Translations under genes and position numbers: made by a program
Notes under the pieces: generated by a model
What the model saw: the letters and a program-made list of their open reading frames with translations, nothing else
Database searches by the model: none
What the model was told of the DNA's origin: nothing
Assembly: GCA_965249615.1 (NCBI GenBank)
Contig: CBDFMI010000006.1
Coordinates: forward strand, 444,132 to 508,131
Length of the DNA: 64,000 nucleotides
Reading direction: 5' to 3'
Source: a bacterium
Lineage (GTDB): Bacteria; UBA8248; JACPRG01; G963555815
Shown here: piece by piece, positions 7,674 through 36,855 of the stretch
Position numbering within the stretch: the stretch's first letter is position 1
Layout: each line of letters starts with the position of its first letter

Positions 7674-9794
7674 GTGGACGGTTTACAGTCAGATACTGGG
7701 AGCCGCTGGTCTCTTCTGTGGCGGGATTGTTTGGGGTGGCTATCGGTCTCAGCAGGTCTGGGTGTATTTGAATCGATCCTTCTGGCCTTCCAAAGACCTG
7801 AGATCAATCCCTTCGCAGTGATCGATCTTTTGGATCTCCTGAGCTCCGCCATCGTTTTAAATTCCTTGATGATTCTCCCAGTCTCAGCGGGCCATTTCCT
7901 CCTGTGTTTTCGCCTTTTGGGAGATCGCGACCGTCGGGCGCAGGGTCGAAACACGTTTTTATTCCACCTCGTTGTGTTCCTCGCGTTGGTGTTCACCATT
8001 TTTATTGGCCGAAGACTCATCTTCACGATCCCTGCAGCCATCGTGATCGCCACGGCCCTTTGGTTCGGACTGAAATATACACCCAGGCGGCTGGCCCGTA
8101 TGTTCGGGCTGGGTGTCACCGTTTTCCTGCTGGCCTTTCTTTCCTACGAATTTGCACGGCCATTTTATCCCCTAAAAAATCTCCGCGAGGTCCGGAACGA
8201 AGACAGCGCACTTCCAAATGTGCTCCTGGTGCTTGTGGATACGTTGCGGGCGGATCGGCTCTCCACATACGGCTATTCCAGGGAGACGTCCCCGTTCATT
8301 TCAAAGCTCGCGGGAGAGGGGGCGAAATTTACGAATTTCTATGCGAACGCGAGTTGGACTCCGCCGGCGACGGCAACGATTTTGACCGGCGTATTTCCCT
8401 CAATCCATGGAATAAACGGAACGTCGTTCCAAAAGAAGGCTCCGGTTAAGACGCTTTGTGAGGTTCTGCGCGGACACGGATACAACACGGCTGCGTTTGT
8501 CGCGAACCCATGGATCGGTGAGCGCAGTGGATTACTCGAAGGATGCGACTATCACAGCCCGATGTGGAACCCCTTTAGGCGAAACCACCAGAGACGTGAT
8601 GTCCCAGATCCATCCGCACCCTCTTTCCTGATCCTCGCCAGCGAGCCGATGCTGGAAAACATTTTCGTCTGGAGAAAGTTTGTTTTTTTGCCACGCATTT
8701 TCGTTTGGAATAGATTTGTTTCTTTGTCCGATAGGGTTGTAACCAGCCTTTTCATAATTGACAGGAAGAAGAGCCACCTCCTCCGCGGGGCATTTCGCCT
8801 AATTCAGGAGGTTGATGGAGATGGGAATGATAACCGAGAGGAGATAGAAAATCGCATTCCTCGTGCGGATGAGTTTACACATGGAGTCTTGAACTACGTC
8901 GATTATGTGGCATCGGTGGAAAACCATGATGGCCAAAGGACGAAATTCTTTATCTATCTGCACTATGTAGAACCGCATAGCCCGTATCAGTCACCTGGGC
9001 GCTATGGTCGCCTGTTTGATCCCCACTATCCGGATGAGCGTGTGACTGAGTATCCGGATCCGTCTGAAAATGGGACCACGCCGGAATTGCCGGATGCGCA
9101 GCTGCACAACCTTCAAGCACAATACGACGGAGAGACCCGTTACTTTGATGACAACTTCCAGTTCCTTTTCTCGAATCTAGAGGAAAGGGGGTTCGTGGAT
9201 AACACGTTGATTGTCTTTGTTTCTGACCATGGAGAGGAATTCTACGAGCATCGGGGATTTGGGCATGGGGGAACAGTCTTTGAGGAAGTGCTCAGAGTGC
9301 CTCCCATTTTATGGTACCCCGGCAGCTTGCCCGGCGGACTTGAGGTGGAGGAGCCGGGATCCCAGGTGGATCTAATGCCAACGATTATGGAGGTCCTCGG
9401 TCTTCCGGGGCCCGGGGATTTCCAGGGAAGAAGCTTGTTGCCGCTCATATATGGGGAGGAGAGCGGGGCGGCCATCTATGGAGAAAGCTCACGCGAGCCC
9501 CCTGGCCGCGAGCTTAGTTCTCATCGGTTTTTAGTTCATGGCCGATATAAATTTATCAACCAGGAAAAACCTGAGACAGAGCATGAAAAATTTCTTTTTG
9601 ACCTTCAGTTGGATCCGAACGAGCAAGAAAACATCTACGGCTCTGAAAAAAAGATAGCGGAAGAAATGGAGTTGCTACTGGAAAAATTCGTCACATTGGT
9701 CGAGAATGACCCCCGGTACTCTGAAAACCCAGAGGCCATCGGAGTTGACCCGGAACTGGAGGAGCGTCTGAAGGCTCTCGGATACGTTGAATGA
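7674..9794 (+). CDS. Membrane-anchored sulfatase-family protein (LTA-synthase/phosphoglycerol-transferase-like: N-terminal 5-TM domain plus sulfatase domain)
   Basis: GTG start; N-terminal ~170 aa hydrophobic; sulfatase motif LVLVDTLRADRLSTYGYSRETSPF...SWTPPATATILTG; C-terminus ends ...EERLKALGYVE. Confidence 0.8.
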   Translation: MDGLQSDTGSRWSLLWRDCLGWLSVSAGLGVFESILLAFQRPEINPFAVIDLLDLLSSAIVLNSLMILPVSAGHFLLCFRLLGDRDRRAQGRNTFLFHLVVFLALVFTIFIGRRLIFTIPAAIVIATALWFGLKYTPRRLARMFGLGVTVFLLAFLSYEFARPFYPLKNLREVRNEDSALPNVLLVLVDTLRADRLSTYGYSRETSPFISKLAGEGAKFTNFYANASWTPPATATILTGVFPSIHGINGTSFQKKAPVKTLCEVLRGHGYNTAAFVANPWIGERSGLLEGCDYHSPMWNPFRRNHQRRDVPDPSAPSFLILASEPMLENIFVWRKFVFLPRIFVWNRFVSLSDRVVTSLFIIDRKKSHLLRGAFRLIQEVDGDGNDNREEIENRIPRADEFTHGVLNYVDYVASVENHDGQRTKFFIYLHYVEPHSPYQSPGRYGRLFDPHYPDERVTEYPDPSENGTTPELPDAQLHNLQAQYDGETRYFDDNFQFLFSNLEERGFVDNTLIVFVSDHGEEFYEHRGFGHGGTVFEEVLRVPPILWYPGSLPGGLEVEEPGSQVDLMPTIMEVLGLPGPGDFQGRSLLPLIYGEESGAAIYGESSREPPGRELSSHRFLVHGRYKFINQEKPETEHEKFLFDLQLDPNEQENIYGSEKKIAEEMELLLEKFVTLVENDPRYSENPEAIGVDPELEERLKALGYVE

Positions 9795-9831
9795 AGGTTA
9801 AAGGGCTCGACTCGGACTTGGTGCACACAGC

Positions 9832-12039
9832 ATGAACCGCTGGTCCTTGCTTCGGCGAGATTTTTTGGGATGGCTGGCGGTTTCGGCAGGTCTGGGCGTA
9901 TTTGAATCGGTCTTGCTGGCCTTCCAAAGACCTAAGATCAACCCCTTCGCGGCCATCGATCTGGTCGCTCTTTCGATTTCTGCCGTCCTTTTCAACTCCC
10001 TGATGGTTCTACCCGTTTCACTCGGTCATTTTTTCTTGTATTGGCGGTTTTCTGGAGGCCACGACCATCAGGCGCAGGGCCGAAACGTCTTTTTATTTCA
10101 CCTCGTCGTGTTCCTCGCGGTTGCGTTCATCATTTTTATTGGCCGAAGGCTCATCCTTACGGTTCCTGCAACTATTCTGATGTCCGCGGGCCTTTGGTTC
10201 GGCCTTAGATATCTTTCGACAAGGATTGTTCGGGCATTTTCAGTAGGTGCCGGTATTTTCCTCTTGGCACTTTTTTCGTATGAGTCCCTCCGCTTGCCGC
10301 TCTATATCACAGACCCCGATTATGAACTATGGAAGTCGGAAGTTACGTTATGGGAGGAGGAAGACCCGCGATGTGAGACGCACCTGCGCTTCTCTACTCT
10401 CAACGGCGACCTGGGGTCCCTCGATTCCAGGAACTGTTCCAATTACTACCTGGAGAAGTTCAGGCAGGTAGAAGCGGAGCACCAATCACTGCCGAACGTT
10501 ATTCTGGTTCTTGTCGATACGCTTCGCCCCGATCACCTGTCCACATACGGCTATCATCGAGAGACATCGCCTTTTATTTCGAAGCTGGCGGCGGAGGGGC
10601 TAAAATTTACCAATTTCTATGCGAACGGTGCGTGGACCCCGCCGACGACTTCAACGCTTCTAACCGGCGTTTTTCCCGCAATCCATGGGATATATGAGCC
10701 TGGCGGGCAAAAGAGGGAGACAGTCAAAGTCATTTCTGAGACTCTCCGTGACTACGGCTATAACACAGCCGCCTTTATCGCGAATCCACTGATTACGAAA
10801 AGCACTGGGTTGCTGGACGGATATGATTATTTCTACCGAAAACCCAGGCCGCCGGTGTCGCGGCCGTCGTTGAGGCTCGCGAGCTTCCCCAGTCCGGAGA
10901 ACCTCCTCATATGGGTGAAGTTTCTGTCTCTGTCAGATAAGGTGGTCCAGGCGTTTCGGGGTTTTGATGGGAAGAAAAACGATCTTTTAGTTCAGATATT
11001 TCCCTTCAGCCGTGAATTAGAGCCAGAAAGACAGGAAAGGATACGGGAGGAATTCCGTTTCCCCCCCGCGGAAGTCGACATGGATAAAGAACTCGACTTC
11101 CCCCGGGCGAATGAAATGGCGAACGCGGTGCTGAATTACGTGGATTACGCCTTGGCAGGTCCTGACTTCGACGTTGTGCAAACGAAATTCTTCCTCTTTC
11201 TCCACGACATGGGTCCCCACGATCCTTATAAGTTGCCCACGCCATATGACGTCCTCTTCGACCCTGGGCGCCAGGATAGGCCGGAGGCCGAAGGGGCAGT
11301 CCGGTTTTTGGATGAGTCGCCGCCTGCGTCAGTTCGGGAGAGATTGGCCCATGATTTGCCGCTGTATGACGGAGCAATCCGTTTCTTCGATGATAATTTT
11401 CAGGTGCTCTTTTCGGAACTCAAGGAACGGGGGCTTTTGGACAATACCCTAGTGATCTTGCTGGCAGATCATGGGGAAGAATTCTATGAGCACGGTGAAA
11501 TTGGACATGGGGAGAAGGTCTTTGAGGAAATTGTCAGGATCCCCCTTGTCTTGTGGTATCCAGGGGAATTGCCCTAAGGGGTCGAGGTGAAGGAGTTCGG
11601 GTCGCAGGTGGATATAATACCCACGATCGTGGATGTTCTGGATCTGCCAGTACCAGAGGGGTTGCAGGGAAAGAGCCTCTTGCCCGCGATATCCGGGAGG
11701 GGGCTAGAGAGGGTTGTGTACGGAGAAAACTTGCGTGGTTCGCAGGATTTATCGTCGGGAGATATGTTGCGATTTTTGATCCATGGCCGATATAAACTCA
11801 TCACCATGGGGACACCTAAGACAGTGCGGGAAAAATTGCTCTTTGACCTCCAGTCGGACCCGCATGAGAAAAACAACATCTGCGGGTCTGAGAAAAAGAT
11901 AGCGGAAGAAATGGAATCGCTGCTAGAGGATTTCATCGCATTGGTGAAGAAGGACCCTAGGTATTCTGAAGACCTAGAGGCCGTTGAAGTGGACCCGGAA
12001 CTGCAGAAGCGTCTAAAGGCTCTCGGATACATTGAATGA
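9832..12039 (+). pseudogene. Tandem paralog of the preceding sulfatase-family gene, interrupted by an in-frame TAA at 11575-11577 (N-terminal fragment 9832..11577; C-terminal fragment from GTG 11587..12039)
   Basis: Same frame on both sides of the stop (ELP*GVEVKEFGSQVDIIPTIV aligns to SLPGGLEVEEPGSQVDLMPTIM of paralog 1); N-terminal DNA ~85% identical to paralog 1; the C-terminal fragment ends ...QKRLKALGYIE. Confidence 0.6.
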
Positions 12040-12129
12040 GGGTTAAAAAGTTCGCGTCGATCCTGGTGAAAAAGCAGGCTCACCTTTGGCCCGCGATCGG
12101 GTTTTTAGTTTGAGAGGACGTGGGTAAGA

Positions 12130-13806
12130 ATGTCCATCTCCAAGGTCGCCCTCCTGGGTCTTGACGGTGCCACCTTCTACCTCCTTCGCCCCTGGATGGA
12201 GGATGGAACGCTCCCCAATCTTGCGAACCTCCAAAAACGGGGAGCCTCTGGGGTCCTTGCCTCCACCGTTCCACCGGTGACACCGACGGCCTGGTCCACG
12301 TGCATCACGGGGGTAAACCCGGGAAAGCACGGGATATTCGATTTTCGAGATTCTCCCCTCCGTCATCCCGACCGCCCCCTTCTGAGTCTATCCTCTATCC
12401 GCGCCCCCCGGCTCTGGCAGCTCCTGAATGGGGTCGGGAAAAAGACCATCATCCTCAATGTCCCCATGACTTATCCACCTGAGGCGGTGGACGGGTGCAT
12501 GGTCTCGGGGATGATGACACCGGGGCCGGAGGCGAACTACACTTATCCCCTGGAACTCAAGGCGGAGATCCGTCGGGAGATCGGAGAGTACCTGCCGGAT
12601 ATCGACCTGCCCAAGTACGACGCCGAGCGTTATGAGGATGCCCTGGCATACCTGGACTTGATACGGAAAAGTTTTTCCCAGCGGGAAAAACTTTTCTTCC
12701 ACCTCATGGAGAACCGGCCCTGGGATTTCTTCATGGGGGTTTTCATCTTGCCCGACCGGCTCCAACACGTCTTCTGGAAATATCTGGACCCTGAGGCCGG
12801 GCTCTACGGGACCGAGATCGCCCAGCGGCTCCGAGGCTCGGTCATTGACTGCTATCGTCTGATGGATGATTTTATCGGGCGCCTCGTGGAGCGGCTTTCC
12901 TCTGATACCCTCCTTCTTATCATGTCGGACCACGGTTTTGGACCCACCCAGGCCTGGATCAACGTGAGCACCTGGCTGGAGCAGCAGGGTCTCCTCAAGA
13001 TGAGGGGCCAGATGGCCCTGCAGCGACGCCTCTTGTACCATGCTGTGGGGCTGAACGAGGTGGGCTGGCTAAAACGCCTTATCCCGCAGTCCCTTCAGGC
13101 CTTCGCCCGAAAACGGGTGCGTCAGACCAAGTCCGCCTTTCGGACCGACGTTCAGGTCACCCTGGACTGGGATCGGACCCAGGCCTTTTTTCCCAGCATT
13201 CCGGCTCAAGGGATCTACATCAATGTGGAGCGGGACGGAGCGGGGATCGTCCCCCCGGGGGAGGCCTACGAGGCCCTGCGCGCTCGGCTTCGCGATTCGT
13301 TGCTGGCCCTGAAGGACCCGGCGACAGGGGAACGGATCGTGGACGCGGTGCAGTATCGAGAAGAGGTCTACCACGGGCCCGAAACCCCCTACGCCCCGGA
13401 CCTGTTCTTCGTCGCCCGAAATTACAGCTACCTGGGCCGGCCGATGTTTGGGGGCCGAGAGGTCATCCGGTCGCGCGTCCAGGTGCCAAACGGCTTTCAC
13501 CGCCCCGACGGGATCTTCATGGCTCATGGACCTCACGTGGCCTCGGGCCGGGCGGTCACTGGCTCCCACATCGCTGACATCACCCCCACCATCCTCTATA
13601 GTCTCGGCCTCCCCGTCCCAAAAGAGATGGACGGAAAGCCTTTGTCGGAGATCTTTGAGGCGGACTTTCGGCCCGAGAAGAAGGGCCAAGAGGTGAGCGC
13701 TACTGAAAGTCCACAGCCGCCTGAGAGGACTCCCTCTGAGGCTTATCGTCCCGAGGAGGCCTCCGCCATCGAGAAACGCCTTCGGGCCCTGGGGTATGAG
13801 GACTGA
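12130..13806 (+). CDS. Alkaline-phosphatase-superfamily enzyme (type I phosphodiesterase/nucleotide pyrophosphatase family), paralog 1
   Basis: N-terminus VALLGLDGATFYLLRPWMEDGTLPNLANL...VPPVTPTAWSTCITGVNPGKHGIFDF; ~558 aa; ends ...IEKRLRALGYED. Confidence 0.8.
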   Translation: MSISKVALLGLDGATFYLLRPWMEDGTLPNLANLQKRGASGVLASTVPPVTPTAWSTCITGVNPGKHGIFDFRDSPLRHPDRPLLSLSSIRAPRLWQLLNGVGKKTIILNVPMTYPPEAVDGCMVSGMMTPGPEANYTYPLELKAEIRREIGEYLPDIDLPKYDAERYEDALAYLDLIRKSFSQREKLFFHLMENRPWDFFMGVFILPDRLQHVFWKYLDPEAGLYGTEIAQRLRGSVIDCYRLMDDFIGRLVERLSSDTLLLIMSDHGFGPTQAWINVSTWLEQQGLLKMRGQMALQRRLLYHAVGLNEVGWLKRLIPQSLQAFARKRVRQTKSAFRTDVQVTLDWDRTQAFFPSIPAQGIYINVERDGAGIVPPGEAYEALRARLRDSLLALKDPATGERIVDAVQYREEVYHGPETPYAPDLFFVARNYSYLGRPMFGGREVIRSRVQVPNGFHRPDGIFMAHGPHVASGRAVTGSHIADITPTILYSLGLPVPKEMDGKPLSEIFEADFRPEKKGQEVSATESPQPPERTPSEAYRPEEASAIEKRLRALGYED

Positions 13807-19168: not shown

Positions 19169-19208
19169 TCGGTCCGCCTGTCTGGCTGAAAGAACCGCCA
19201 GAAAAAGC

Positions 19209-19236
19209 TTGACGGGGAAAAATGGGTGTATATACT
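19209..19236 (+). promoter_or_regulatory. Strong sigma70-like promoter element (TTGACG-N16-TATACT), copy 1 of a 30-bp element repeated at 35897
   Basis: cTTGACGgggaaaaatgggtgtaTATACTc; 27/30 nt identical to 35896-35925. Confidence 0.45.
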
Positions 19237-19326
19237 CGTTGTATCGGAAGAGACTGAAGGAGACGGAATTTCAGTCCGAGAGCGGGGCCACGCAATGGAG
19301 CAGAAATGGCCCAGGAGGGGGTGAAC

Positions 19327-20034
19327 ATGGGCGAGCTTTCTTCCACGGCGAAGCGTGCTGTCTCAGCCTACGGCGGGGCCGATCGCTGGCGAAACGCACG
19401 GGCCATCGAGGCTGTGGTCTCGGCCAACGGCTTGGGCTTCCGCTTGAAGTGGCGGCGTCCTGCCCCAAATGCGGACGTCCGGGTGGAGATAGCGGAACCG
19501 GTCGTCAGGATGGATCTCAAAGATAGCGAGGGGCACATCGGCGTGATGGACCGGGGAGACGTGAGGATTGAGACGTCTTCTGGTAAAGTCGTGGCCTCAC
19601 GGCCGAATCCAGAACACCTGTTTCCCTACGGGCGAAGGGCTTTTTGGTGGGATCGGCTCGACCAGATCTACTTCTCAGGGTACGCCTTGTGGAACTACAT
19701 GACGCTTCCGGCCCTGTTGCTCAGGGACGACATCCAATGGGAGGAGCTCAGAGAGGGGAGCCTTCAGGCGCGTTTTCCCAAACATCTTCCAACACATTGC
19801 GAGGTGCAGCAGTTTCATTTCGAGCCGGCCACAGGGCTCCTGCGCCAGCTCGACTACACGGCGGAGGCCTTCGGAAACTGGGCCAAGGCCGCGAACGTGG
19901 TTTTGGAGCACGGCGAATCGGAGGGGATTCCTTATCCTTCACTGCGTCGGGTTACCCCGCGCCGAGGGGACGGCAGCCCGCGCAAGGGGCCGCTCCTCGT
20001 CGGGATCGAATTCCATCGATTCCGGCTCGTCTAG
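19327..20034 (+). CDS. Hypothetical protein
   Basis: GGAGG RBS 7 nt upstream of ATG 19327 (the 19306 ATG lacks an RBS); 235 aa, no recognisable family. Confidence 0.5.
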   Translation: MGELSSTAKRAVSAYGGADRWRNARAIEAVVSANGLGFRLKWRRPAPNADVRVEIAEPVVRMDLKDSEGHIGVMDRGDVRIETSSGKVVASRPNPEHLFPYGRRAFWWDRLDQIYFSGYALWNYMTLPALLLRDDIQWEELREGSLQARFPKHLPTHCEVQQFHFEPATGLLRQLDYTAEAFGNWAKAANVVLEHGESEGIPYPSLRRVTPRRGDGSPRKGPLLVGIEFHRFRLV

Positions 20035-26714: not shown

Positions 26715-28748
26715 TCATCCGAGAAGGAGGAAGAGGCTCACGGTGATGAAAATGCCAAGGAGCATGACCAGGGCATAGTTCTGGACGACGCCCGTCTGAA
26801 GGCGGCGAAGCCCCCGGGCCCAGTTGATGAGAATGACCCCGATCCCATTCACGGCGCCGTCCACCGTTTGAAGATCGAAAATGCCAGACAGCTTGCTGAG
26901 GGCCACCGTTCCCCATGAGACCCCGTTGACAGCCCCGTCCACACCCTTGGCGTCAGTGCCCGAACAAAGATGAGCCAGGCGTATCGAGGGCCGTATGAAG
27001 ACGGCGTGGTAGATCTCGTCCACCCAGTATTTATTGAGGAGGAGCCGGTGGACTCCACGGAATCGCTCGGCCACCTTGGCGGGGAGGTCTGGCCGCTTTC
27101 GATACATGTGGCGGGCCAGCATCCACCCCGACACCCCCACCACCACCGAAAAGACGGCGAGCCACAGCTCCAGAAGGCCGAATCTCCCTGATTTGTTTTC
27201 GGCTGAAGCCGCCACCAGCTGGATGCCGGCATGGCCCCCGTCTGGGAAGACTGGCGCCAAATGCTCGTGAAAGAAGTTCATCTGCGGGATGCCGACCCAG
27301 CCCCCCAGCAGGGCGAGGACGGCGAGGATCACCAAGGGAACCGTCATCACGGCGGGGGATTCGTGGACATGGGAGACGACGTGAGGGTCGCCCCGGGATT
27401 CTCCGTAGAAGGCGAGATAGATGAGGCGGAACATGTAGAAGGCCGTCATGAAGGCGGTGATGATCCCCAGGGCGTAGAGGAAATAGTGGCCGCCCTTAAA
27501 AGTCTCGGCCAGGATCTCGTCTTTGCTGAAGAAGCCCGCGAAGGGCGGAATCCCGGCGATGGCGAGGGCCCCCATGTAAAAGGTGATGGCCGTGACGGGG
27601 AGGCGGCGACGAAGCCCCCCCATGTAGCGAAGGTCCTGCCTCCGCCCCTCCTCCGGGTCGGAGTGCAGGGCGTGGATGACGCTCCCCGCGCCGAGGAACA
27701 TGAGGCCTTTGAAAAAGGCGTGGGTCATGAGATGAAAGATCCCGGCCCCGAAGGCCCCCACCCCAAGGGCCATAAACATGTAGCCGAGCTGGCTCACCGT
27801 GGAGTAGGCCAGGACCTTTTTGATGTCATTCTGGACGAGCGCAATGGAGGCGGCGAAGATGGCCGTGAGGGCCCCGACCAGAGCCACCACGCTCATAGAC
27901 ACGGGGGAGAGGAGATACAAGGCGTTCGAGCGGGCCACCATGTAAACCCCGGCGGTCACCATGGTGGCGGCGTGGATGAGGGCGCTGACCGAAGTGGGGC
28001 CTTCCATGGCGTCCGGAAGCCAGGTGTAGAGGGGAAGCTGGGCCGATTTCCCCACGGCCCCCACAAAGAGGAGGAGTGTAATGGCCGTCGCCGCGCCGGC
28101 GATGGCGGAGCCCGCCACCGCTGCCCCGGCCTGATCGAAGACGCCTGCGTAGTTCAGCGTCCCGAATGTCTGGAAGATGAGAAAGAGGCCGAGGAGGAAA
28201 CTCGCGTCCCCGATGCGGTTCATGATGAAGGCCTTTTTTCCCGCGTCGGCGGCTGACTTCTTGTGGTACCAAAAGCCGATGAGGAGATAAGAACAGAGCC
28301 CCACCCCCTCCCAGCCGACGAACATGAGGAGGTAGTTGTTGGCCAGGATGAGAAGGAGCATCGAGAACATGAAGAGGTTCAGGTAGGCGAAGTAGCGGGA
28401 GTAGCCCGGGTCCCCACGCATATACCCGGCCGAGTAGACGTGGATGACGAACCCCACCCCCGTTACCACGAAGAGCATCACGGCGCTGAGGGGGTCCAGA
28501 AGGAACGCCACCTCGACCAGAAGGCTCGGCACCGGGATCCACTCAAAGAGGCGCACCTCACCGCTCAGGCCCCGGAAGACCGCCTGATAGAGGAGGAGGA
28601 GGGACAGCCCCAGAGAAAGGCCGGTGGAGATAATGGCGGGCCAGTGGGCTTTCCTTCCGATGTAGCGCCCGAGGAATCCGTTCACCAAGACCCCCAGGGC
28701 CGGAAAGACGAGGACGAGAGGCAGAAGATTCAGCACTGATATCACCAC
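26715..28748 (-). CDS. nuoL: NADH-quinone oxidoreductase subunit L
   Basis: 677 aa; antiporter-like core plus C-terminal long-helix extension; [25 protein letters not shown]. Confidence 0.9.
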
Positions 28749-29044
28749 TTCAACAGGTTGATCTCGTCGACGTTTAGGGCGGCTCTTTGCCGGTTGATGG
28801 AGATGATGAGGGCGAGTCCGACGGCGGCCTCGGCCGCCGCCACCGTGATGACAAAGATGGCGAAGACCTGCCCCGTTAGGTTCCCATGGGCCCTGGAGAA
28901 GGCTATCAGGGTCAGGTTGACGGCGTTCAGCATGAGTTCGATGGACATCAGGATGATCATGATGTTTCGCCTGGTCAGGACCCCGACGGCCCCAATCAGG
29001 AAGATGATGCCCCCCAGGGCGAGGTAGTAAGGAATGGGAACCAT
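28742..29044 (-). CDS. nuoK: NADH-quinone oxidoreductase subunit K
   Basis: 100 aa, 3 TM; conserved E in TM2 and TM3 ([11 protein letters not shown]). Confidence 0.88.
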
Positions 29045-29566
29045 TTACTTAATCTCTCGCTTGGCCAGCACGATGGCCCCGATCATGGCCGCCAGGAGGA
29101 GGAGGGAGGCCACCTCAAAGGGGAAGAGGAACTGGGTGTAGAGAACGCCCCCGAAGGCCTCGGTGTTGCCTATCTCCGCGGCGGCCTTCGCCCCCTCTGC
29201 GACAACCCCCGCCGGGGGCAGCAATTCGAAGAATCCCCCCAACAGGATGACCAGGAACTCGGCGGCCAGGAGCCCACCGATGATGAAAGCGAAGGCCCGC
29301 TGGCGGTTCCACTGACGGACCCCCATCTGTTCGCGCACATTAACGAGCATAATGACGAAGACGTAGAGCATCATGATGGCCCCGGCGTAGATGAGGATCT
29401 GGATGGCAGCGAGAAACTCCGCGCCCAGCATGACGTAAAGGGCAGCCACGAAGAAGAAGCTGAGGAGGAGAGCGAGGGCGCTGTGGACCACGTTTCTCAG
29501 GCTGATGACCATCACGGAGGCGGCGATCATCCCGACCGCGAAGATGAGAAAGAATGGCCATTCCAT
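29045..29566 (-). CDS. nuoJ: NADH-quinone oxidoreductase subunit J
   Basis: 173 aa, 5 TM, position between nuoH and nuoK. Confidence 0.85.
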   Translation of the reverse strand: MEWPFFLIFAVGMIAASVMVISLRNVVHSALALLLSFFFVAALYVMLGAEFLAAIQILIYAGAIMMLYVFVIMLVNVREQMGVRQWNRQRAFAFIIGGLLAAEFLVILLGGFFELLPPAGVVAEGAKAAAEIGNTEAFGGVLYTQFLFPFEVASLLLLAAMIGAIVLAKREIK

Positions 29567-29579
29567 CTTGGAATCCCCT

Positions 29580-30662
29580 TTAAACGAGCTGCAGGACGAT
29601 ACCGGTGATAAAAATGTTCAAGAGAGCCAGCGGGAACATCATCTTCCACCCCAGCGCCATGAGCCGGTCATAGCGAAAGCGCGGCAGGGTCCCCCTGATC
29701 CAGATGAACATGAACATCCCGAACAGCACCTTGAGGAAGAACCAGAGAGGTCCTGAGATGAGGACGGCCTTCGTCACCCCCCCGATGTTCTGGACCAGGG
29801 AGGCCAACCCCACAGAGGCGGCGCCGACGGCCGATGCCACCAGGAAGGTGACCAGGTCCACGCCGCCCGAGATGATGGTTTCCAGGAACTGGGGGATTTG
29901 CCAGCCCCCGAAGAAGAGGATCGCCCCGATGGAGCAGATCACCATCATGTTGGCGTACTCAGCCAGGAAGAAGAAGGCGAACTTCATGCCGCTGTACTCG
30001 GTGTGGAAGCCCCCCACCAGCTCTGTCTCGGCCTCGGGGAGGTCGAAGGGGAGGCGGTTGGTCTCGGCGAGCCCGGCGACGAAGTAGAGGACGAAAGCCA
30101 GGGGCTGATAGAAGATGAACCAGACGTTCTTCTGGGCCTCGACGATCTCAAGGAGGTTCAGGGACCCGGCCACCATGAGAGGGCCGATTAGGGCGAACCC
30201 CAAAAAAATCTCGTAGCTGATGAGTTGGGCCGCGCTCCGGAACCCCCCCAGCAGGGAATACTTGCTCCCCGAGGCCCAGCCCGCCATGACGATGCCGAAG
30301 ACACCGAGGGAGGAGATCCCGAGGATGTAGAGGATCCCGATGTTGATGTTGGCGATGAAGAAGTTCCCCGAGATGGGGATGACCGAGTAGACGATGAAGG
30401 CGGGGATGAGGGCGAAGAGCGGGGCCATCAGGAAGACCGGTCGATCCGCCTGGTGCGGGATGATGTCTTCCTTGAGGAAGAGTTTTAGACCGTCGGCGAT
30501 GGGCTGAAGGAGGCCGTGGTAGCCGACCCGCATGGGCCCCATGCGCACCTGAATGTGCCCGATGACCTTCCGCTCGAAGTAGACCATGTAGGCCACCAGG
30601 AACGAGACCGCCCCCCAGATAATCAGGATCTTGATGAGGGCGAAACCAACCTCAAGCCACAT
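29580..30662 (-). CDS. nuoH: NADH-quinone oxidoreductase subunit H
   Basis: 360 aa; [21 protein letters not shown] and EYANMM motifs. Confidence 0.9.
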
Positions 30663-30701
30663 CTGTGTGCACCTTGCCTCCGCTAGGGGGGGTCGCTGAC
30701 C

Positions 30702-31826
30702 TCAGCGATCCACTTCCCCGAGCACAATATCGATGCTTCCGATGGCGGCGACGGCGTCCGAGATGAGGCCGCCCTGCATCATGGTGGAGATCGACTGCAG
30801 ATTCACGAAAGAGGGGGGACGGATCCTCAGCCGGTAAGCCCGGTCGGTCCCGTCACTGACTAGATAGTAGCCCAGCTCCCCCTTGGGACTCTCGATCCGG
30901 TGGTAGACTTCCCCCTTTTTTGGCTTCAACACCCGGGGAACCTTGGCCATGGTCTTTCCGGAGGGGAGGTCGGCGGCGGCCTGCTCGATGATGAAGGCGC
31001 TCTGGCGCATCTCCTCCACACGGACGAGGTAACGGTCATAGACATCGCCATTCTTTCCCACCGGGACGGTGAAGTCAAAATCCTCGTAGGCGGCGTAGGG
31101 CTCTGCACGCCGCACGTCATGGGCCACGCCGGAGGCCCTCAGGATGGGCCCACTGGCCCCGAGGTCAATGGCGTCCTCGGCGGAGAGAACGGCCACTCCG
31201 CGGGTCCTGGACTGCCAGATACGGTTCTCGGTGAGGAGGTCTTCATAATCGTAGATGGCCTTGGGGAACTCGCGGGCGAACTCCAAACACTTGTCGTAAA
31301 AAAGTTTGGGGGGGTCGTGGTAGACGCCTCCGACGCGGAAGGCATGAACCGTGAGCCTCGCCCCAAAGGCGGTCTCGAAAAGATCCAGGACCTTCTCTCG
31401 GTCCCGGAAACAATAGAGGAAGGCCGTCATGGCCCCGATGTCCAGGGCGTGGGTGGCGAGCCAGAGGAGATGACTCGCGATCCGGGTGAGTTCGGCTGTG
31501 ATGACGCGGATGTACTGGGCCCGGGCCGGAACCTCCATCTGAGCAAGCTTTTCCACCGTCTCCACATATCCCAGGTTGTTGGCTGGGGAGGCCACATAAT
31601 CCGTTCGGTCTGTGTAGGGAACGAACTGGGCGTAGGTGATGTTCTCGCCGATCTTCTCGACGCCCCGGTGGAGATAACCGATGTCCACGTCAACCCCTTG
31701 CACAATCTCCCCCTTCAGCCGAAGGATGACGCGAAGGACCCCGTGGGTGCTGGGGTGCTGGGGCCCCATGTTGAGGATGAGCTCTTCCGTCTGGGGGACG
31801 ATGGTCTCTGGGGTGACCTGGGTCAT
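30702..31826 (-). CDS. nuoD: NADH-quinone oxidoreductase subunit D (49-kDa)
   Basis: 374 aa; LNMGPQHPSTHGVLR N-terminal signature. Confidence 0.9.
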   Translation of the reverse strand: MTQVTPETIVPQTEELILNMGPQHPSTHGVLRVILRLKGEIVQGVDVDIGYLHRGVEKIGENITYAQFVPYTDRTDYVASPANNLGYVETVEKLAQMEVPARAQYIRVITAELTRIASHLLWLATHALDIGAMTAFLYCFRDREKVLDLFETAFGARLTVHAFRVGGVYHDPPKLFYDKCLEFAREFPKAIYDYEDLLTENRIWQSRTRGVAVLSAEDAIDLGASGPILRASGVAHDVRRAEPYAAYEDFDFTVPVGKNGDVYDRYLVRVEEMRQSAFIIEQAAADLPSGKTMAKVPRVLKPKKGEVYHRIESPKGELGYYLVSDGTDRAYRLRIRPPSFVNLQSISTMMQGGLISDAVAAIGSIDIVLGEVDR

Positions 31827-31830
31827 AGTC

Positions 31831-32622
31831 TCACTCTCGATGGGCCATGGGCCGGGCGGCGGGCGGGATATGGCTTTCTACCCATTGGAGCCCGAACCCA
31901 TCCCCGCGAACGGGATACTCCTTTCGGAGGGGATGGCCCTCCCAGTCGTCCGGGAGGAGGATCCGTCTGAGGTCGGGGTGGCCCTCGAAATCAATCCCCA
32001 CCATGTCGTAGGCCTCTCGTTCGAGCCAGTTGGCCGTCCGCCAGATGTCAGACACGGTCGGGGCCGTCTCCGCCTCCCCAAGGCGGACCTTCAGCCGAAG
32101 GCGCCCCCTTCGCTCCAAGCCATAGAGGTGATAGACCACCTCGAAGGGGCGATCCCGGTCCGGGTAGTGGACACCGCAGAGGTCCGACAGGAAATTGAAA
32201 TGGTGTTGGTCTTTGAGGTGAAGACAAAGTGGGTGGATCTGGTCCCGCCGGACGACGACGGTGAGTTCGTCCTCTTTTCCCATGAAGGCGGAGACCTCTT
32301 CCACCCCTTCCCCTGAAAAGGCGCGAATGGCCTTCACCAGGGGGAGTTCCTCGAGATTTTCGCCGGGCTTTTTGTCCGCTTTGACCGGTGGCGGGGCCTT
32401 TTTTTGTTCCGAGGCCGGGGGTTTCTCAGCCGGAGGCGCTTTGGGCTCTTCGGATTCAGCCGTTGGAGGGGAAGCTTCGGGAGCGGCTGACTCTTCCCCC
32501 TCGGGCTTTTTGTCCGCCTTGACCGGCGGTGAGGCCTCTTTTTGTTCCGAGGCCGGGGGTTTCTCAGCCGAGGACGCTTCGGGCTCCTCGGGCTCAGCGG
32601 GGGCGGAGTTCTCTTCGGTCAC
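31831..32622 (-). CDS. nuoC: NADH-quinone oxidoreductase subunit C (30-kDa) with ~85-aa Ala/Pro/Glu/Lys-rich N-terminal extension
   Basis: C-terminal 175 aa are canonical NuoC ([19 protein letters not shown]); the N-terminal extension contains a duplicated [19 protein letters not shown] unit; the true start could be downstream. Confidence 0.8.
32364..32600. repeat. ~138-bp tandem direct duplication inside the 5' part of nuoC
   Basis: cgggctttttgtccgcTTTGACCGGtGGcGgGGCCTtTTTTTGTTCCGAGGCCGGGGGTTTCTCAGCCG... recurs at 32364 and 32502 with few substitutions. Confidence 0.7.
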
Positions 32623-32742
32623 CTCGTCTCTCCTCTAGACGACGACCCATCTAACCTGTGCAAAAATTCACAAAAGGCGGCCAAAAAAAAGCTTCCCGTT
32701 GTTCCTTTGGCCTCCCTGACTCACGGTCATCGTTTCCCTGGG

Positions 32743-33219
32743 CTACTTTCGAAGAAACTTTTCCTGCTGGATCTTCTCCTGCAGCTTCAGAATTCCCCAC
32801 ATCAAGGCCTCCGGGCGGGGAGGGCAGCCCGTGAGATAGATGTCGACGGGGACCACTTGGTCCACGCCCTGGAGGGTGGAGTAGGTGTTGAAAGGTCCTC
32901 CTGCCGTCGAGCAGCTCCCCATGGAGACCACCCATCGGGGTTCTGCCATCTGGTCATAGATCTTGCGCAAAACCGGGGCCATCTTGTAGGTGACGGTCCC
33001 GGCCACGATCATCACGTCCGACTGACGCGGGCTCGCCCTGAAGATGACCCCAAAGCGGTCGAGGTCATATCGGGAGGCGCCTGTGGCCATCATCTCAATC
33101 GCGCAGCAGGCCAGGCCGAACTGCATGGGCCAAAGGGCTGATTTTCGGGCCCAATTGACCAGGTAATCGAGGGTTGTCGTGAAGATGTTCTCCTCGAAGC
33201 GGTGTTCCACTACACCCAT
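32743..33219 (-). CDS. nuoB: NADH-quinone oxidoreductase subunit B (20-kDa, N2 cluster)
   Basis: 158 aa; CCAIEMM...GSCSTAGG...CPPRPE cysteine ligands. Confidence 0.92.
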
Positions 33220-33602
33220 TTAAGGGCCCCTTTGCGCCAGGCGTAGAAGTAACCGACGAGGAGGATGAGAATGAAGAGCATCATCTCGACGAGGCCAAAT
33301 AGGCCGAGCCGGCCGTAGACCACCGCCCAGGGAAACAGGAAGACCGCCTCCACGTCAAAAAGGAGGAAGAGGATGGCGACGATGTAAAACCGGATGGAAA
33401 ATTGTTCCCCCGCCCGCGTGAGGGGCGGGATCCCGCACTCATAGGGGGAGAGTTTCTCGGTGTCTGGCCGGTTGGGTCGGATGAGATAGGCCAGGAGGAG
33501 GGTCCCGATTCCGAAGGCCGCCACCACCAGGATGAAAATGAAGATTGGGACATAGGGATGGATGACAGTGTAGTCACTGAAAAACCGGTTAACCAGTTCC
33601 AC
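33210..33602 (-). CDS. nuoA: NADH-quinone oxidoreductase subunit A
   Basis: 130 aa, 3 TM; [13 protein letters not shown] motif; overlaps nuoB. Confidence 0.88.
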
Positions 33603-35610: not shown

Positions 35611-35751
35611 GAAGGTTCTGAAGAAGTCTCAGGGGGTCGCCTGAGAATCCACGCCGTCGCTTGCCCGTCTGAGGCAGGCTGGCTATATTGGGTTTCGTTT
35701 AGAGAGGAGATGGAAGTTCTCTTCGTTTTCGCGCGGTAGGGCGGGTCAATT

Positions 35752-35853
35752 ATGGACTTGGATTTTCTCTTCGTCGTCGGCGGGATTATCATCCTGGCGG
35801 GGATGGCCTTTATTGTCCTCCTCGGCATCCTTTGGGTATTTCGCCGGGGATAA
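35752..35853 (+). CDS. Possible 33-aa single-TM small peptide
   Basis: MDLDFLFVVGGIIILAGMAFIVLLGILWVFRRG; hydrophobic core with a C-terminal RR; weak RBS. Confidence 0.2.
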   Translation: MDLDFLFVVGGIIILAGMAFIVLLGILWVFRRG

Positions 35854-35896
35854 CCCTCACTTTTCCCATCCCACAGAAAAATCCCGCAGAAAAAAC

Positions 35897-35924
35897 TTGA
35901 CGAGGCAAAATAGGTGTATATACT
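35897..35924 (+). promoter_or_regulatory. Strong sigma70-like promoter (TTGACG-N16-TATACT), copy 2 of the repeated 30-bp element
   Basis: cTTGACGaggcaaaatagggtgtaTATACTc; ~58 nt upstream of the SDR gene start. Confidence 0.45.
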
Positions 35925-35982
35925 CATTTAGATAACACTGGAGACACACGAGCACCTAAACCGATGAGGAGGGGTCGTTGAA

Positions 35983-36711
35983 ATGAGACTAGAGGGGGAA
36001 AGCGTATTGGTCACCGGCGCCAATCGCGGCATAGGCGCAGCACTCGTTAACGCCTTGCTTGGCAAAGGTGTGCGAAAAGTCTATGCCGCCGCAAGGAATC
36101 CCGACAGCCTGCCGGATTTTGGAGATAGCCGTGTTGTACCTATAGCTATCGATATCACTAACACCGAGCAGGTCAAACAAGCGGCCAAGACTGCGGCCGA
36201 TGTCGAGTTACTCATCAACAACGCAGGCGTCGCCGCCTTCACGAGCCTGCTGGATGGTCCCATCGACCTGATAAAGCGAGACATGGACACCAACTACTAC
36301 GGCACTCTGGATATGGTTCGACGCTTTGTGCCCGTGTTGGAAACCAAGACCGATGCGGCAATTGTAAATGTGGTAACCATTGGCGCCTTTGTGAATTTCC
36401 CGATGTTGGGAGGCTATTGCACGTCTAAGTCGGCACTGTTCTCACTTTCCCAGGGAATCCGAATCGAACTCGCGGCTAAGAGCATTGCGATCCACACCGT
36501 TAATCCCGGGCCAATCGACACTGACATGGCCAAGGATTTTCAGGCAGAGAAAACCAGTCCGGAGGTGACCGCAGAGAACACTCTGACAGCGCTGGAAAGC
36601 GGTGAGGTCGATATTTTCCCTGACGCCGGTAGCCAGGGGATGATTAAGGTATGGAAAAGCGACTATCGTGCCCTCGAGCAAATGGTAGCCGAAATGCATA
36701 ACGCGACTTAG
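35983..36711 (+). CDS. SDR-family NAD(P)-dependent oxidoreductase
   Basis: TGANRGIGAAL glycine motif, NNAG, catalytic Y-x3-K (YCTSK); GGAGG RBS; visibly AT-richer codon usage than neighbours. Confidence 0.85.
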   Translation: MRLEGESVLVTGANRGIGAALVNALLGKGVRKVYAAARNPDSLPDFGDSRVVPIAIDITNTEQVKQAAKTAADVELLINNAGVAAFTSLLDGPIDLIKRDMDTNYYGTLDMVRRFVPVLETKTDAAIVNVVTIGAFVNFPMLGGYCTSKSALFSLSQGIRIELAAKSIAIHTVNPGPIDTDMAKDFQAEKTSPEVTAENTLTALESGEVDIFPDAGSQGMIKVWKSDYRALEQMVAEMHNAT

Positions 36712-36804
36712 AAGGGAAAGGAATCGACCAGCAAAAAGGGCACCTATGGGAGACTGTTCGCTGAACGTTCTCCCATCTCCCATTGGCTCTGCTTTTTCAG
36801 AAAG

Positions 36805-36830
36805 AAAGTCCCGAGGAGCCTCGGGACTTT
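36805..36830. terminator. Bidirectional terminator hairpin between the SDR gene and the aminotransferase
   Basis: AAAGTCCCGAGG-ag-CCTCGGGACTTT perfect inverted repeat flanked by A/T runs. Confidence 0.5.
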
Positions 36831-36855
36831 GAGATGCAGAAGGGCCGGAAGCCTT

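Follow-up and report, generated by a model that had tools for sequence, protein, structure and literature searches.

MosR (Rv1049), a MarR-family repressor of Mycobacterium tuberculosis, is the closest described counterpart of the regulatory sites considered here. Its structure is available for the apo protein (PDB 4FX0) and for the protein with DNA (PDB 4FX4) (PMC5823404). The reduced form of MosR binds DNA and represses (Brugarolas et al. 2012, via PMC5823404), and at 0.5-1 mM oxidant the protein is released from DNA through a Cys10-Cys12 disulfide; its target is an oxidoreductase gene (PMC5823404). Such redox release is known only for the M. tuberculosis protein (PMC5823404). The product of rv1050, which shares a locus with mosR, is an SDR of the adh_short type.

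Here we present two promoter-operator modules, S1 and S2, found in 64 kb of DNA from an uncultured bacterial lineage (this whole stretch is called the window below). With a probability of about 0.78, comparative evidence leads us to read both as MosR-type operators lying within promoters, placing the two downstream genes under one MosR-like repressor encoded outside the window, with the two copies being paralogous.

An earlier note on this DNA had drawn attention to a pair of near-identical 30-bp elements, and reading of the sequence upheld the pair: CTTGACGGGGAAAAATGGGTGTATATACTC (19208-19237) and CTTGACGAGGCAAAATAGGTGTATATACTC (35896-35925) agree at 27 of 30 positions. A search with the 30-mer, allowing up to 3 mismatches, returned exactly these two sites in the window (0 and 3 mismatches, respectively), with 0.00 expected from 100 shuffles. 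The ungapped likeness is slightly longer than first claimed, covering 35 of 39 positions (19199-19237 against 35887-35925); it starts at CAGAAAAA(G/A)CTTGACG and ends abruptly a few bases past TATACTC. The reported TTGACG-N16-TATACT geometry, which scored 10/12 at each site in a consensus scan, and the upstream A-tract are present at both sites (Table 1), and the distances to a Shine-Dalgarno-preceded ATG, 90 nt for ATG 19327 and 58 nt for ATG 35983, are as claimed. The downstream genes are indeed unrelated, gene 1 having no Pfam/NCBIfam match and gene 2 encoding an SDR; the description of the latter as low in GC also holds, with a GC3 of 0.62 against ~0.75 in its neighbours. No third, weaker copy was detected in the window by a 45-nt two-consensus scan or by a position-weight matrix, both strands being searched and nothing else exceeding 8 bits. 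Scanned against Rfam with gathering thresholds, the whole window matched zero RNA families, so that a riboswitch or sRNA explanation was dropped. The S1 leader contains a hairpin (19250-19274) that the 98% identical relative does not conserve.

Table 1. Coordinates of the two predicted modules, their parts, the downstream genes and the segments that vary between relatives.
Feature	Positions	Strand	Basis
S1, promoter-operator module	19199..19241	+	geometry scan, 30-mer search, matrix
S1 A-tract	19200..19206		
S1 -35 TTGACG	19209..19214		
S1 A-rich spacer			
S1 operator TGGGTGTATATACTCGTT, core GTGTATATACTC	19223..19240		
S1 -10 TATACT, within operator	19231..19236		
S1 predicted transcription start	near 19243-19245		
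Gene 1, 235-aa conserved protein, presumed regulon member	19327..20034	+	no Pfam/NCBIfam family
Segment absent from L095, L096 and L097: operator core, 5'UTR, gene 1	19226..20026	+	synteny, alignment breakpoints
S2, promoter-operator module	35887..35929	+	geometry scan, 30-mer search, matrix
S2 A-tract	35888..35895		
S2 -35 TTGACG	35897..35902		
S2 operator TAGGTGTATATACTCATT	35911..35928		
S2 -10 TATACT	35919..35924		
S2 predicted transcription start	near 35931-35933		
Gene 2, 242-aa SDR, presumed regulon member	35983..36711	+	adh_short 2.9e-35; NF006118 297 bits
983-bp segment: S2, SDR gene, two terminator-like hairpins (36746-36776, 36805-36830)	35873..36855	+	breakpoints

Judged by its sequence, each element is a complete sigma-70-type promoter consisting of an A-tract, the -35 hexamer TTGACG, a 16-nt spacer and the -10 hexamer TATACT. 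The conserved "spacer" block, T(A/G)GGTGTATATACTC, holds the palindrome GTGTA-N2-TAC(A/T)C, of which the right half forms the -10 hexamer. The predicted operator is thus an 18-bp pseudo-palindrome, T(A/G)GGTGTATATACTCnTT, with the core GTGTA-TA-TAC(T)C and the -10 embedded in it. The dyad had been guessed at as tgggtgta..., which proved wrong: its centre is the TA at 19231-19232 and 35919-35920, and the TATACT hexamer is therefore itself half of the operator. Most of the 30-mer can be accounted for by putative function in this way, with CTTGAC as the -35, AAAAT as an A-rich flank and (A/G)GGTGTATATACTC as operator plus -10.

The same arrangement occurs in front of regulator genes in other genomes. 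A metagenome scan with the pattern TTGAC-N5-AAAA-N2-GGTGTATATAC yielded 6 contigs carrying 5 distinct sequences. A MarR-family gene starts within ~10 nt after the element in L001/L003, L002 and L005, while L006 ends too soon past the element to show a downstream gene. The positions left free in the pattern complete the palindrome aTAGGtGTATATACtCCTAt. This MarR subfamily was then searched in one genome per species, giving 587 confirmed loci, of which the best 80 were analysed. These best 80 span more than 10 phyla, among them Gemmatimonadota, Nitrospirota, Methylomirabilota, many Cyanobacteria, Nitrospinota, Acidobacteriota and Chloroflexota, and they also include methanotrophic and sulfur-oxidising Gammaproteobacteria. 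In ~70 of the 80 species, the layout A-tract, TTGACA, 7-9 nt, TAnGTGTATATAC[A/T]CnTA lies just upstream of the MarR gene, and in nearly all of these best 80 loci the ATG follows only a few bases 3' of the operator. Within 200 nt upstream, 68 of the 80 loci match the consensus at 13/18 positions or more, against a background of 2 per 128 kb; since the consensus came from the metagenome sequences, this test on the 80 loci is independent. The core GTG[TC]A..TAC[AT]C is present at 70 of the same 80 loci.

A matrix built from 76 of these sites is near-invariant at G3, T4, G5, A7, T8, A9, T10, A11, C12 and C14. A and T are about equally frequent at position 13 (the window has T), and the matrix also contains the A-rich stretch 5' of the operator and the A-tract 5' of the -35. 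The gap from -35 to operator is 7-9 nt at 58 of the 76 sites, and at 64 of them a -10 of TATACA or TATACT lies within the operator. Most regulator genes begin 4-11 nt past the -10, which implies that they are mostly leaderless.

Both window sites match every near-invariant position of this matrix. S2 scores 30.8 bits, close to the median of 31.3 for the family's own promoters; these span 15-37 bits, and S1, with 20.6, ranks low among them. The orthologous S1 copy in the 98% identical relative, L007, reads ATAGGTGTATATACTC and scores 23.9 bits. At both sites 8 nt separate the -35 from the operator, positions 8-13 of the operator are the -10 TATACT, and the right arm is weaker than in the family (TACTCgTT and TACTCaTT vs TAC[AT]CnTA). 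S1 and S2 are the only two places in the window with the core GTG[TC]A..TAC[AT]C. Their leaders, at 58-90 nt, differ from the mostly leaderless promoters of the MosR-like genes. Of the two explanations first offered for the conserved spacer, that of a shared regulator's operator overlapping the promoter is thus supported by the comparative evidence, which points to spacer plus -10 as the operator of a MosR-type MarR protein.

The identity of the subfamily was approached by a profile search, in which the M. tuberculosis MosR structures, 4FX0/4FX4, matched at E 2.2e-34 and the next structure at 4e-11. Members of the subfamily keep a Cys-x-Cys where helix 1 begins and, in the recognition helix, the stretch RTTLTRNLE. 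By these sequence criteria, the MarR subfamily carrying this promoter is MosR. In the mosR-rv1050 locus of M. tuberculosis, the positions equivalent to the two-site layout described below hold GTGTAGCTACAC and GTGTAGTTACAC. The sequence 5' of mosR is CTTGACAAATACGTGTAGCTACACGAG, and between the two genes, 5' of rv1050, it is TTTTTTGCGCATATATGTGTAGTTACACCCA...GGAG..ATG (TTTTTTGCGCATATATGTGTAGTTACACCCAACTGAGGAG..ATG); all of these were read from the locus sequence and are not a published footprint. In a second actinobacterial homologue, L094, the corresponding two sites read GTGTAGATACAC and GTGTAGTTACAC, and an SDR again follows. The M. tuberculosis and L094 sites together indicate that the half-sites GTGTA/TACAC and the two-site layout are common to Actinobacteria and the other phyla, with only the central dinucleotide differing between them. 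Searches of the accessible literature, both by operator sequence and by the names Rv1049/Rv1050 with their binding motif, found no description of the motif.

The second of the two sites was observed directly after the regulator stop codon in most of the 80 loci (L012-L091), ~420-630 nt past the start of the MarR match, as well as in M. tuberculosis (L092, 2145-2164) and in L094. This second operator type is preceded by a T-run (aattttttt) and lacks a TTGACA -35, and directly behind it come a ribosome-binding site and then the downstream gene; it could be either a separate promoter or a roadblock in the read-through transcript. The genes behind it in the 80 loci include those for SDRs, NmrA-like reductases, alpha/beta hydrolases, hotdog thioesterases, QueG-like iron-sulfur proteins and large membrane transporters of the RND type, so that an SDR is a typical target. 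As a separate observation, the second-operator region of L033, a MAG of a Methanoregulaceae archaeon, is identical to those of L001/L003, L026 and L053, which are delta-proteobacterial MAGs and metagenome contigs, and its regulator promoter is similar, suggesting a binning error or a recent transfer.

The shared operator layout, the assignment of the subfamily to MosR and the SDR nature of Rv1050 together make the two window genes most likely targets of a MosR-like repressor, and by analogy both are probably under one redox-responsive switch. The mechanism proposed here takes its DNA binding, repression and redox signal from the homologous MosR of M. tuberculosis: a MosR-like dimer in the reduced state, whose gene would lie outside the window, would sit on the -10 dyad and block RNA polymerase. 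Oxidation of the Cys-x-Cys would release the dimer, as in M. tuberculosis MosR, and the gene at 19327, for a protein of predicted LolA fold, and the SDR gene at 35983 would be switched on together, with transcripts starting ~7 nt past TATACT.

The kind of target expected under this mechanism, an oxidoreductase or detoxification enzyme, is represented by gene 2, whose product belongs to the enzyme superfamily of Rv1050 (adh_short SDR). SDR genes also lie downstream of the regulator in L019, L022, L027, L047, L062, L073 and L094. Orthology of gene 2 with the SDRs beside MosR-like genes was considered and rejected, as it is 22-27% identical to the six compared (L019-L073).

Gene 1 has 215 homologues with 28 invariant residues. 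Its AlphaFold2 model, built with 40 homologues, has a pLDDT of 93.6, and the best match of the model in the PDB is 3buu of the LolA superfamily (E 1.5e-6, TM about 0.5), with LolB (1iwm) also matched; a LolA/LolB/RseB-like half-barrel fold is therefore predicted. Half-barrels of this kind bind hydrophobic ligands. No signal peptide was seen at its N-terminus, and its GC3 of 0.74 looks native. In the neighbourhoods of gene-1 homologues at 57-59% identity (L008-L011) there was neither a MosR operator nor a MarR gene, which indicates that membership of gene 1 in the regulon is not conserved at that distance, and no counterpart of gene 1 was found in the MosR-like loci compared. Two further observations concern these homologues: one of the L008-L011 loci contains an HxlR regulator together with detoxification genes, and in L009 (3880-4000) a different dyad, GGTACAgTGTACC, lies upstream of the gene-1 homologue beside a divergent 130-aa gene without a Pfam match, which may encode a different regulator for the gene-1 family.

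We infer the presence of the cognate regulator elsewhere in the source genome. No MosR-like gene was detected in the 64-kb window or in the ~20-kb loci of four relatives (tblastn E > 1). Among the fetched loci, L005 is the nearest to the window in tetranucleotide composition (r = 0.86), and the named relatives of its MosR-like protein belong to NC10/Methylomirabilales; with this protein as query, no MosR-like gene appeared on the relatives' large contigs among the best 120 matches. Neither S1 nor S2 has a regulator next to it, and neither belongs to a regulator-adjacent target with a second operator: they are orphan sites of the TTGACA type, whereas in the 80 loci the target adjoining the regulator uses the second site type, which has no TTGACA -35. 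The 5'UTRs of gene 1 and gene 2 contain no vestige of a MosR coding sequence and show no likeness to UTRs of the MarR loci.

The likeness between S1 and S2 extends beyond what the operator accounts for. In the stretch 5' of the operator, S1 and S2 agree at 27 of 34 positions, a value attained by only 0.35% of 2850 pairs of family promoters, which average 10.3 (sd 3.6). Of the family pairs listed, the top-scoring ones have nearly the same upstream sequence, as orthologous promoters of close genomes should. Against a mean of 10.3, functional constraint alone is not enough to explain 27/34, and the sequences argue that S1 and S2 are paralogous, sharing a recent ancestor, with a ~40-bp module copied or inherited from one source.

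Both modules border on genes that differ between close relatives. L007 keeps S1 and gene 1, and the three ~95% identical relatives (L095, L096 and L097) lack both gene 1 and gene 2. At site 1 these three retain the left half-module AGAAAAAGCTTGACGGGGGAAAATGG (window 19200-19225; 16765-16790 in L095) and diverge exactly at the operator core. Their half-module consists of A-tract, -35 and spacer, without an operator or a usable -10, and it adjoins a Trypsin_2 gene that the window does not have. Since the half-module looks like a remnant, loss of operator and gene 1 from these relatives is more probable at site 1 than their gain by the window. At site 2, the 983-bp SDR segment has 77 unrelated bases as its counterpart in L095, L096 and L097. 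The left junction of this segment is marked by a tandem 13-nt direct repeat, ATCCCACAGAAAA / ATCCCGCAGAAAA (35868-35893), the first copy lying in the conserved flank and the second opening the promoter module; the repeat may be a microhomology junction. A small hydrophobic ORF of 36 aa, MDLDFLFVVGGIIILAGMAFIVLLGILWVFRRG, lies just upstream of S2 (35742-35852); it is conserved, and the annotation of a relative lists it among the genes (L095, 900-1001). Between the gene-1 orthologue and the APS kinase gene, L007 has an extra 1.5 kb (10712-12215) with two minus-strand genes of 207 and 95 aa, without Pfam matches, that are missing from the window, and this intergenic spot looks like a hotspot of gene-content change.

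These patterns bear on the second explanation offered in the earlier note, a small mobile promoter cassette. One part of it stands, in that the copies appear to be paralogous and are located at the 5' edge of strain-variable segments. What finds no support is the comparison with a mobile element or integron cassette: around the two segments we found no transposon-like ends, target-site duplication or bracketing inverted repeats, the segments share no 3' end, the direct repeat is at one junction only, and the window has only two copies. A weaker form of the idea, in which the operator is real and the repetition is due to mobility and not to selection acting on two separate promoters, with a ~40-bp unit copied or carried along with acquired genes by recombination and giving them a promoter already under a regulator's control, is an unlikely one. 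It would fit the upstream likeness of S1 and S2, as high as that of apparently orthologous family pairs, and the position of both copies at the head of segments that differ among ~95% identical relatives. It would fit equally well the foreign-looking GC3 of the SDR gene (0.62) behind a promoter near-identical to that of native-looking gene 1, the direct repeat that coincides with the left edge of the SDR segment, and the break at site 1 of the relatives, exactly between spacer and operator core. The relatives' loci, however, show no copy but the orthologous one, the dead left-half remnant at site 1 points to loss and not to gain in the window, and both strain differences are replacements and not clean insertions.

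A broader and still doubtful version would have the ~40-bp portable unit derived, in this lineage, from the leaderless promoter of the MosR-type regulator itself and joined to accessory genes, of which one is probably foreign. The MosR promoter-operator would then be an ancient, fixed cis-module, with the operator as its -10, found from Actinobacteria to Cyanobacteria and Nitrospirota, that seeds regulon members by duplication. If this were true, the fused genes would be recruited at once into a redox-sensing regulon.

It is very unlikely that S1 and S2 are ordinary strong constitutive promoters without any repressor, their spacers being alike by chance or through a lineage-specific promoter consensus (UP element, -35, extended -10). 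The near-consensus hexamers and the A-tract upstream at both sites would suit this idea, as would the lack of a nearby regulator gene. However, the GGTGTATATACTC block is found in no other promoter-like site of the window, and it is a dyad that is almost invariant in front of one repressor subfamily in ~70 of 80 species from many phyla (best 80 of 587 loci). A general preference of RNA polymerase would not yield such a tie to one repressor subfamily, which excludes a plain constitutive promoter. Moreover, the M. tuberculosis sites have GC or TT at the centre and keep the arms GTGTA/TACAC, which is the signature of a dimeric DNA-binding protein and not of a -10. The remaining candidate, an operator of some other palindrome-binding repressor such as a LexA-type SOS box, also TGTATATA-rich, is extremely unlikely: the core does contain TGTATATAC, resembling part of the gamma-proteobacterial SOS box CTGT-(AT)4-ACAG, but the arms are 4 nt apart and not 8 (GTGT-N4-ACnC vs CTGT-N8-ACAG), which excludes a LexA box, neither downstream gene is a DNA-repair gene, and the motif co-occurs with MosR-like genes and not with lexA or recA.

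Two other features of the window were observed in passing. An NADH-dehydrogenase operon on the minus strand (26715-33602; L095 3176-13078) has only nuoA, B, C, D, H, J, K, L, M and N, and none of nuoE, F, G or I is called in the relatives' annotation. At 7674-11577 there are two adjacent paralogous genes of 706 and 581 aa, with similar N-termini (...SLLRRD.LGWL.VSAGLG) and a GC3 of 0.58-0.60, clearly below that of the rest of the window; L007 aligns twice there, at 70-72% identity.

Under the MosR reading, the odd conservation within the promoter spacer is explained as a repressor site, and two genes of an uncultured lineage, one of them of no known function, acquire a candidate oxidation-sensing input. 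The MosR subfamily, studied only in M. tuberculosis, turns out to be widespread, with one almost invariant operator doubling as -10 across the 80 best loci, and the motif makes MosR regulons predictable from sequence in many phyla. The presumed paralogous copies at strain-variable genes provide a small, concrete case for how new genes may be wired into an existing regulon.

Compared with known systems, the promoter-operator type described here resembles the M. tuberculosis MosR locus in four respects. The regulators that own this promoter elsewhere are of the same protein subfamily; the half-sites are GTGTA / TACAC around a centre of the same length, 2 nt; in the layout, one site is at the regulator promoter and one, preceded by a T-run, stands before the downstream gene; and the target is an SDR oxidoreductase (Rv1050; gene 2 in the window). 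The window sites differ in that their centre is TA, so that the operator also forms the -10 hexamer, whereas the M. tuberculosis sites have GC or TT there and a -35 directly adjoining the operator. Furthermore, no regulator gene lies beside the window sites; by their TTGACG -35 they belong to the "regulator-promoter" type, but the genes that they drive have leaders and do not encode regulators.

The thiol-based MarR repressors OhrR, SarZ, MgrA and HypR are more distant counterparts, being likewise MarR-fold dimers on AT-rich pseudo-palindromes over the -10 that are released by cysteine oxidation and have detoxifying oxidoreductases as targets. Their match to the subfamily profile is weak (E 1e-7 to 1e-5), and their operators differ from GTGTA-N2-TACAC; we know of none with that core. 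They also differ in their cysteines, using a single Cys or a Cys22-Cys127' pair between subunits, unlike the Cys-x-Cys in one helix of MosR (PMC5823404). LexA and Fur boxes over the -10 offer a looser parallel, in that one repressor site repeated before unrelated genes leads to near-identical stretches and an apparently conserved spacer, but the protein family, dyad spacing and signal are different. A MarR/MosR-type operator within a promoter is therefore a known kind of regulation, met here in an unstudied lineage. What goes beyond the textbook is the spread of the MosR subfamily over many phyla with a near-invariant operator/-10, the orphan sites of regulator-promoter type, and the apparently paralogous pair at strain-variable genes.
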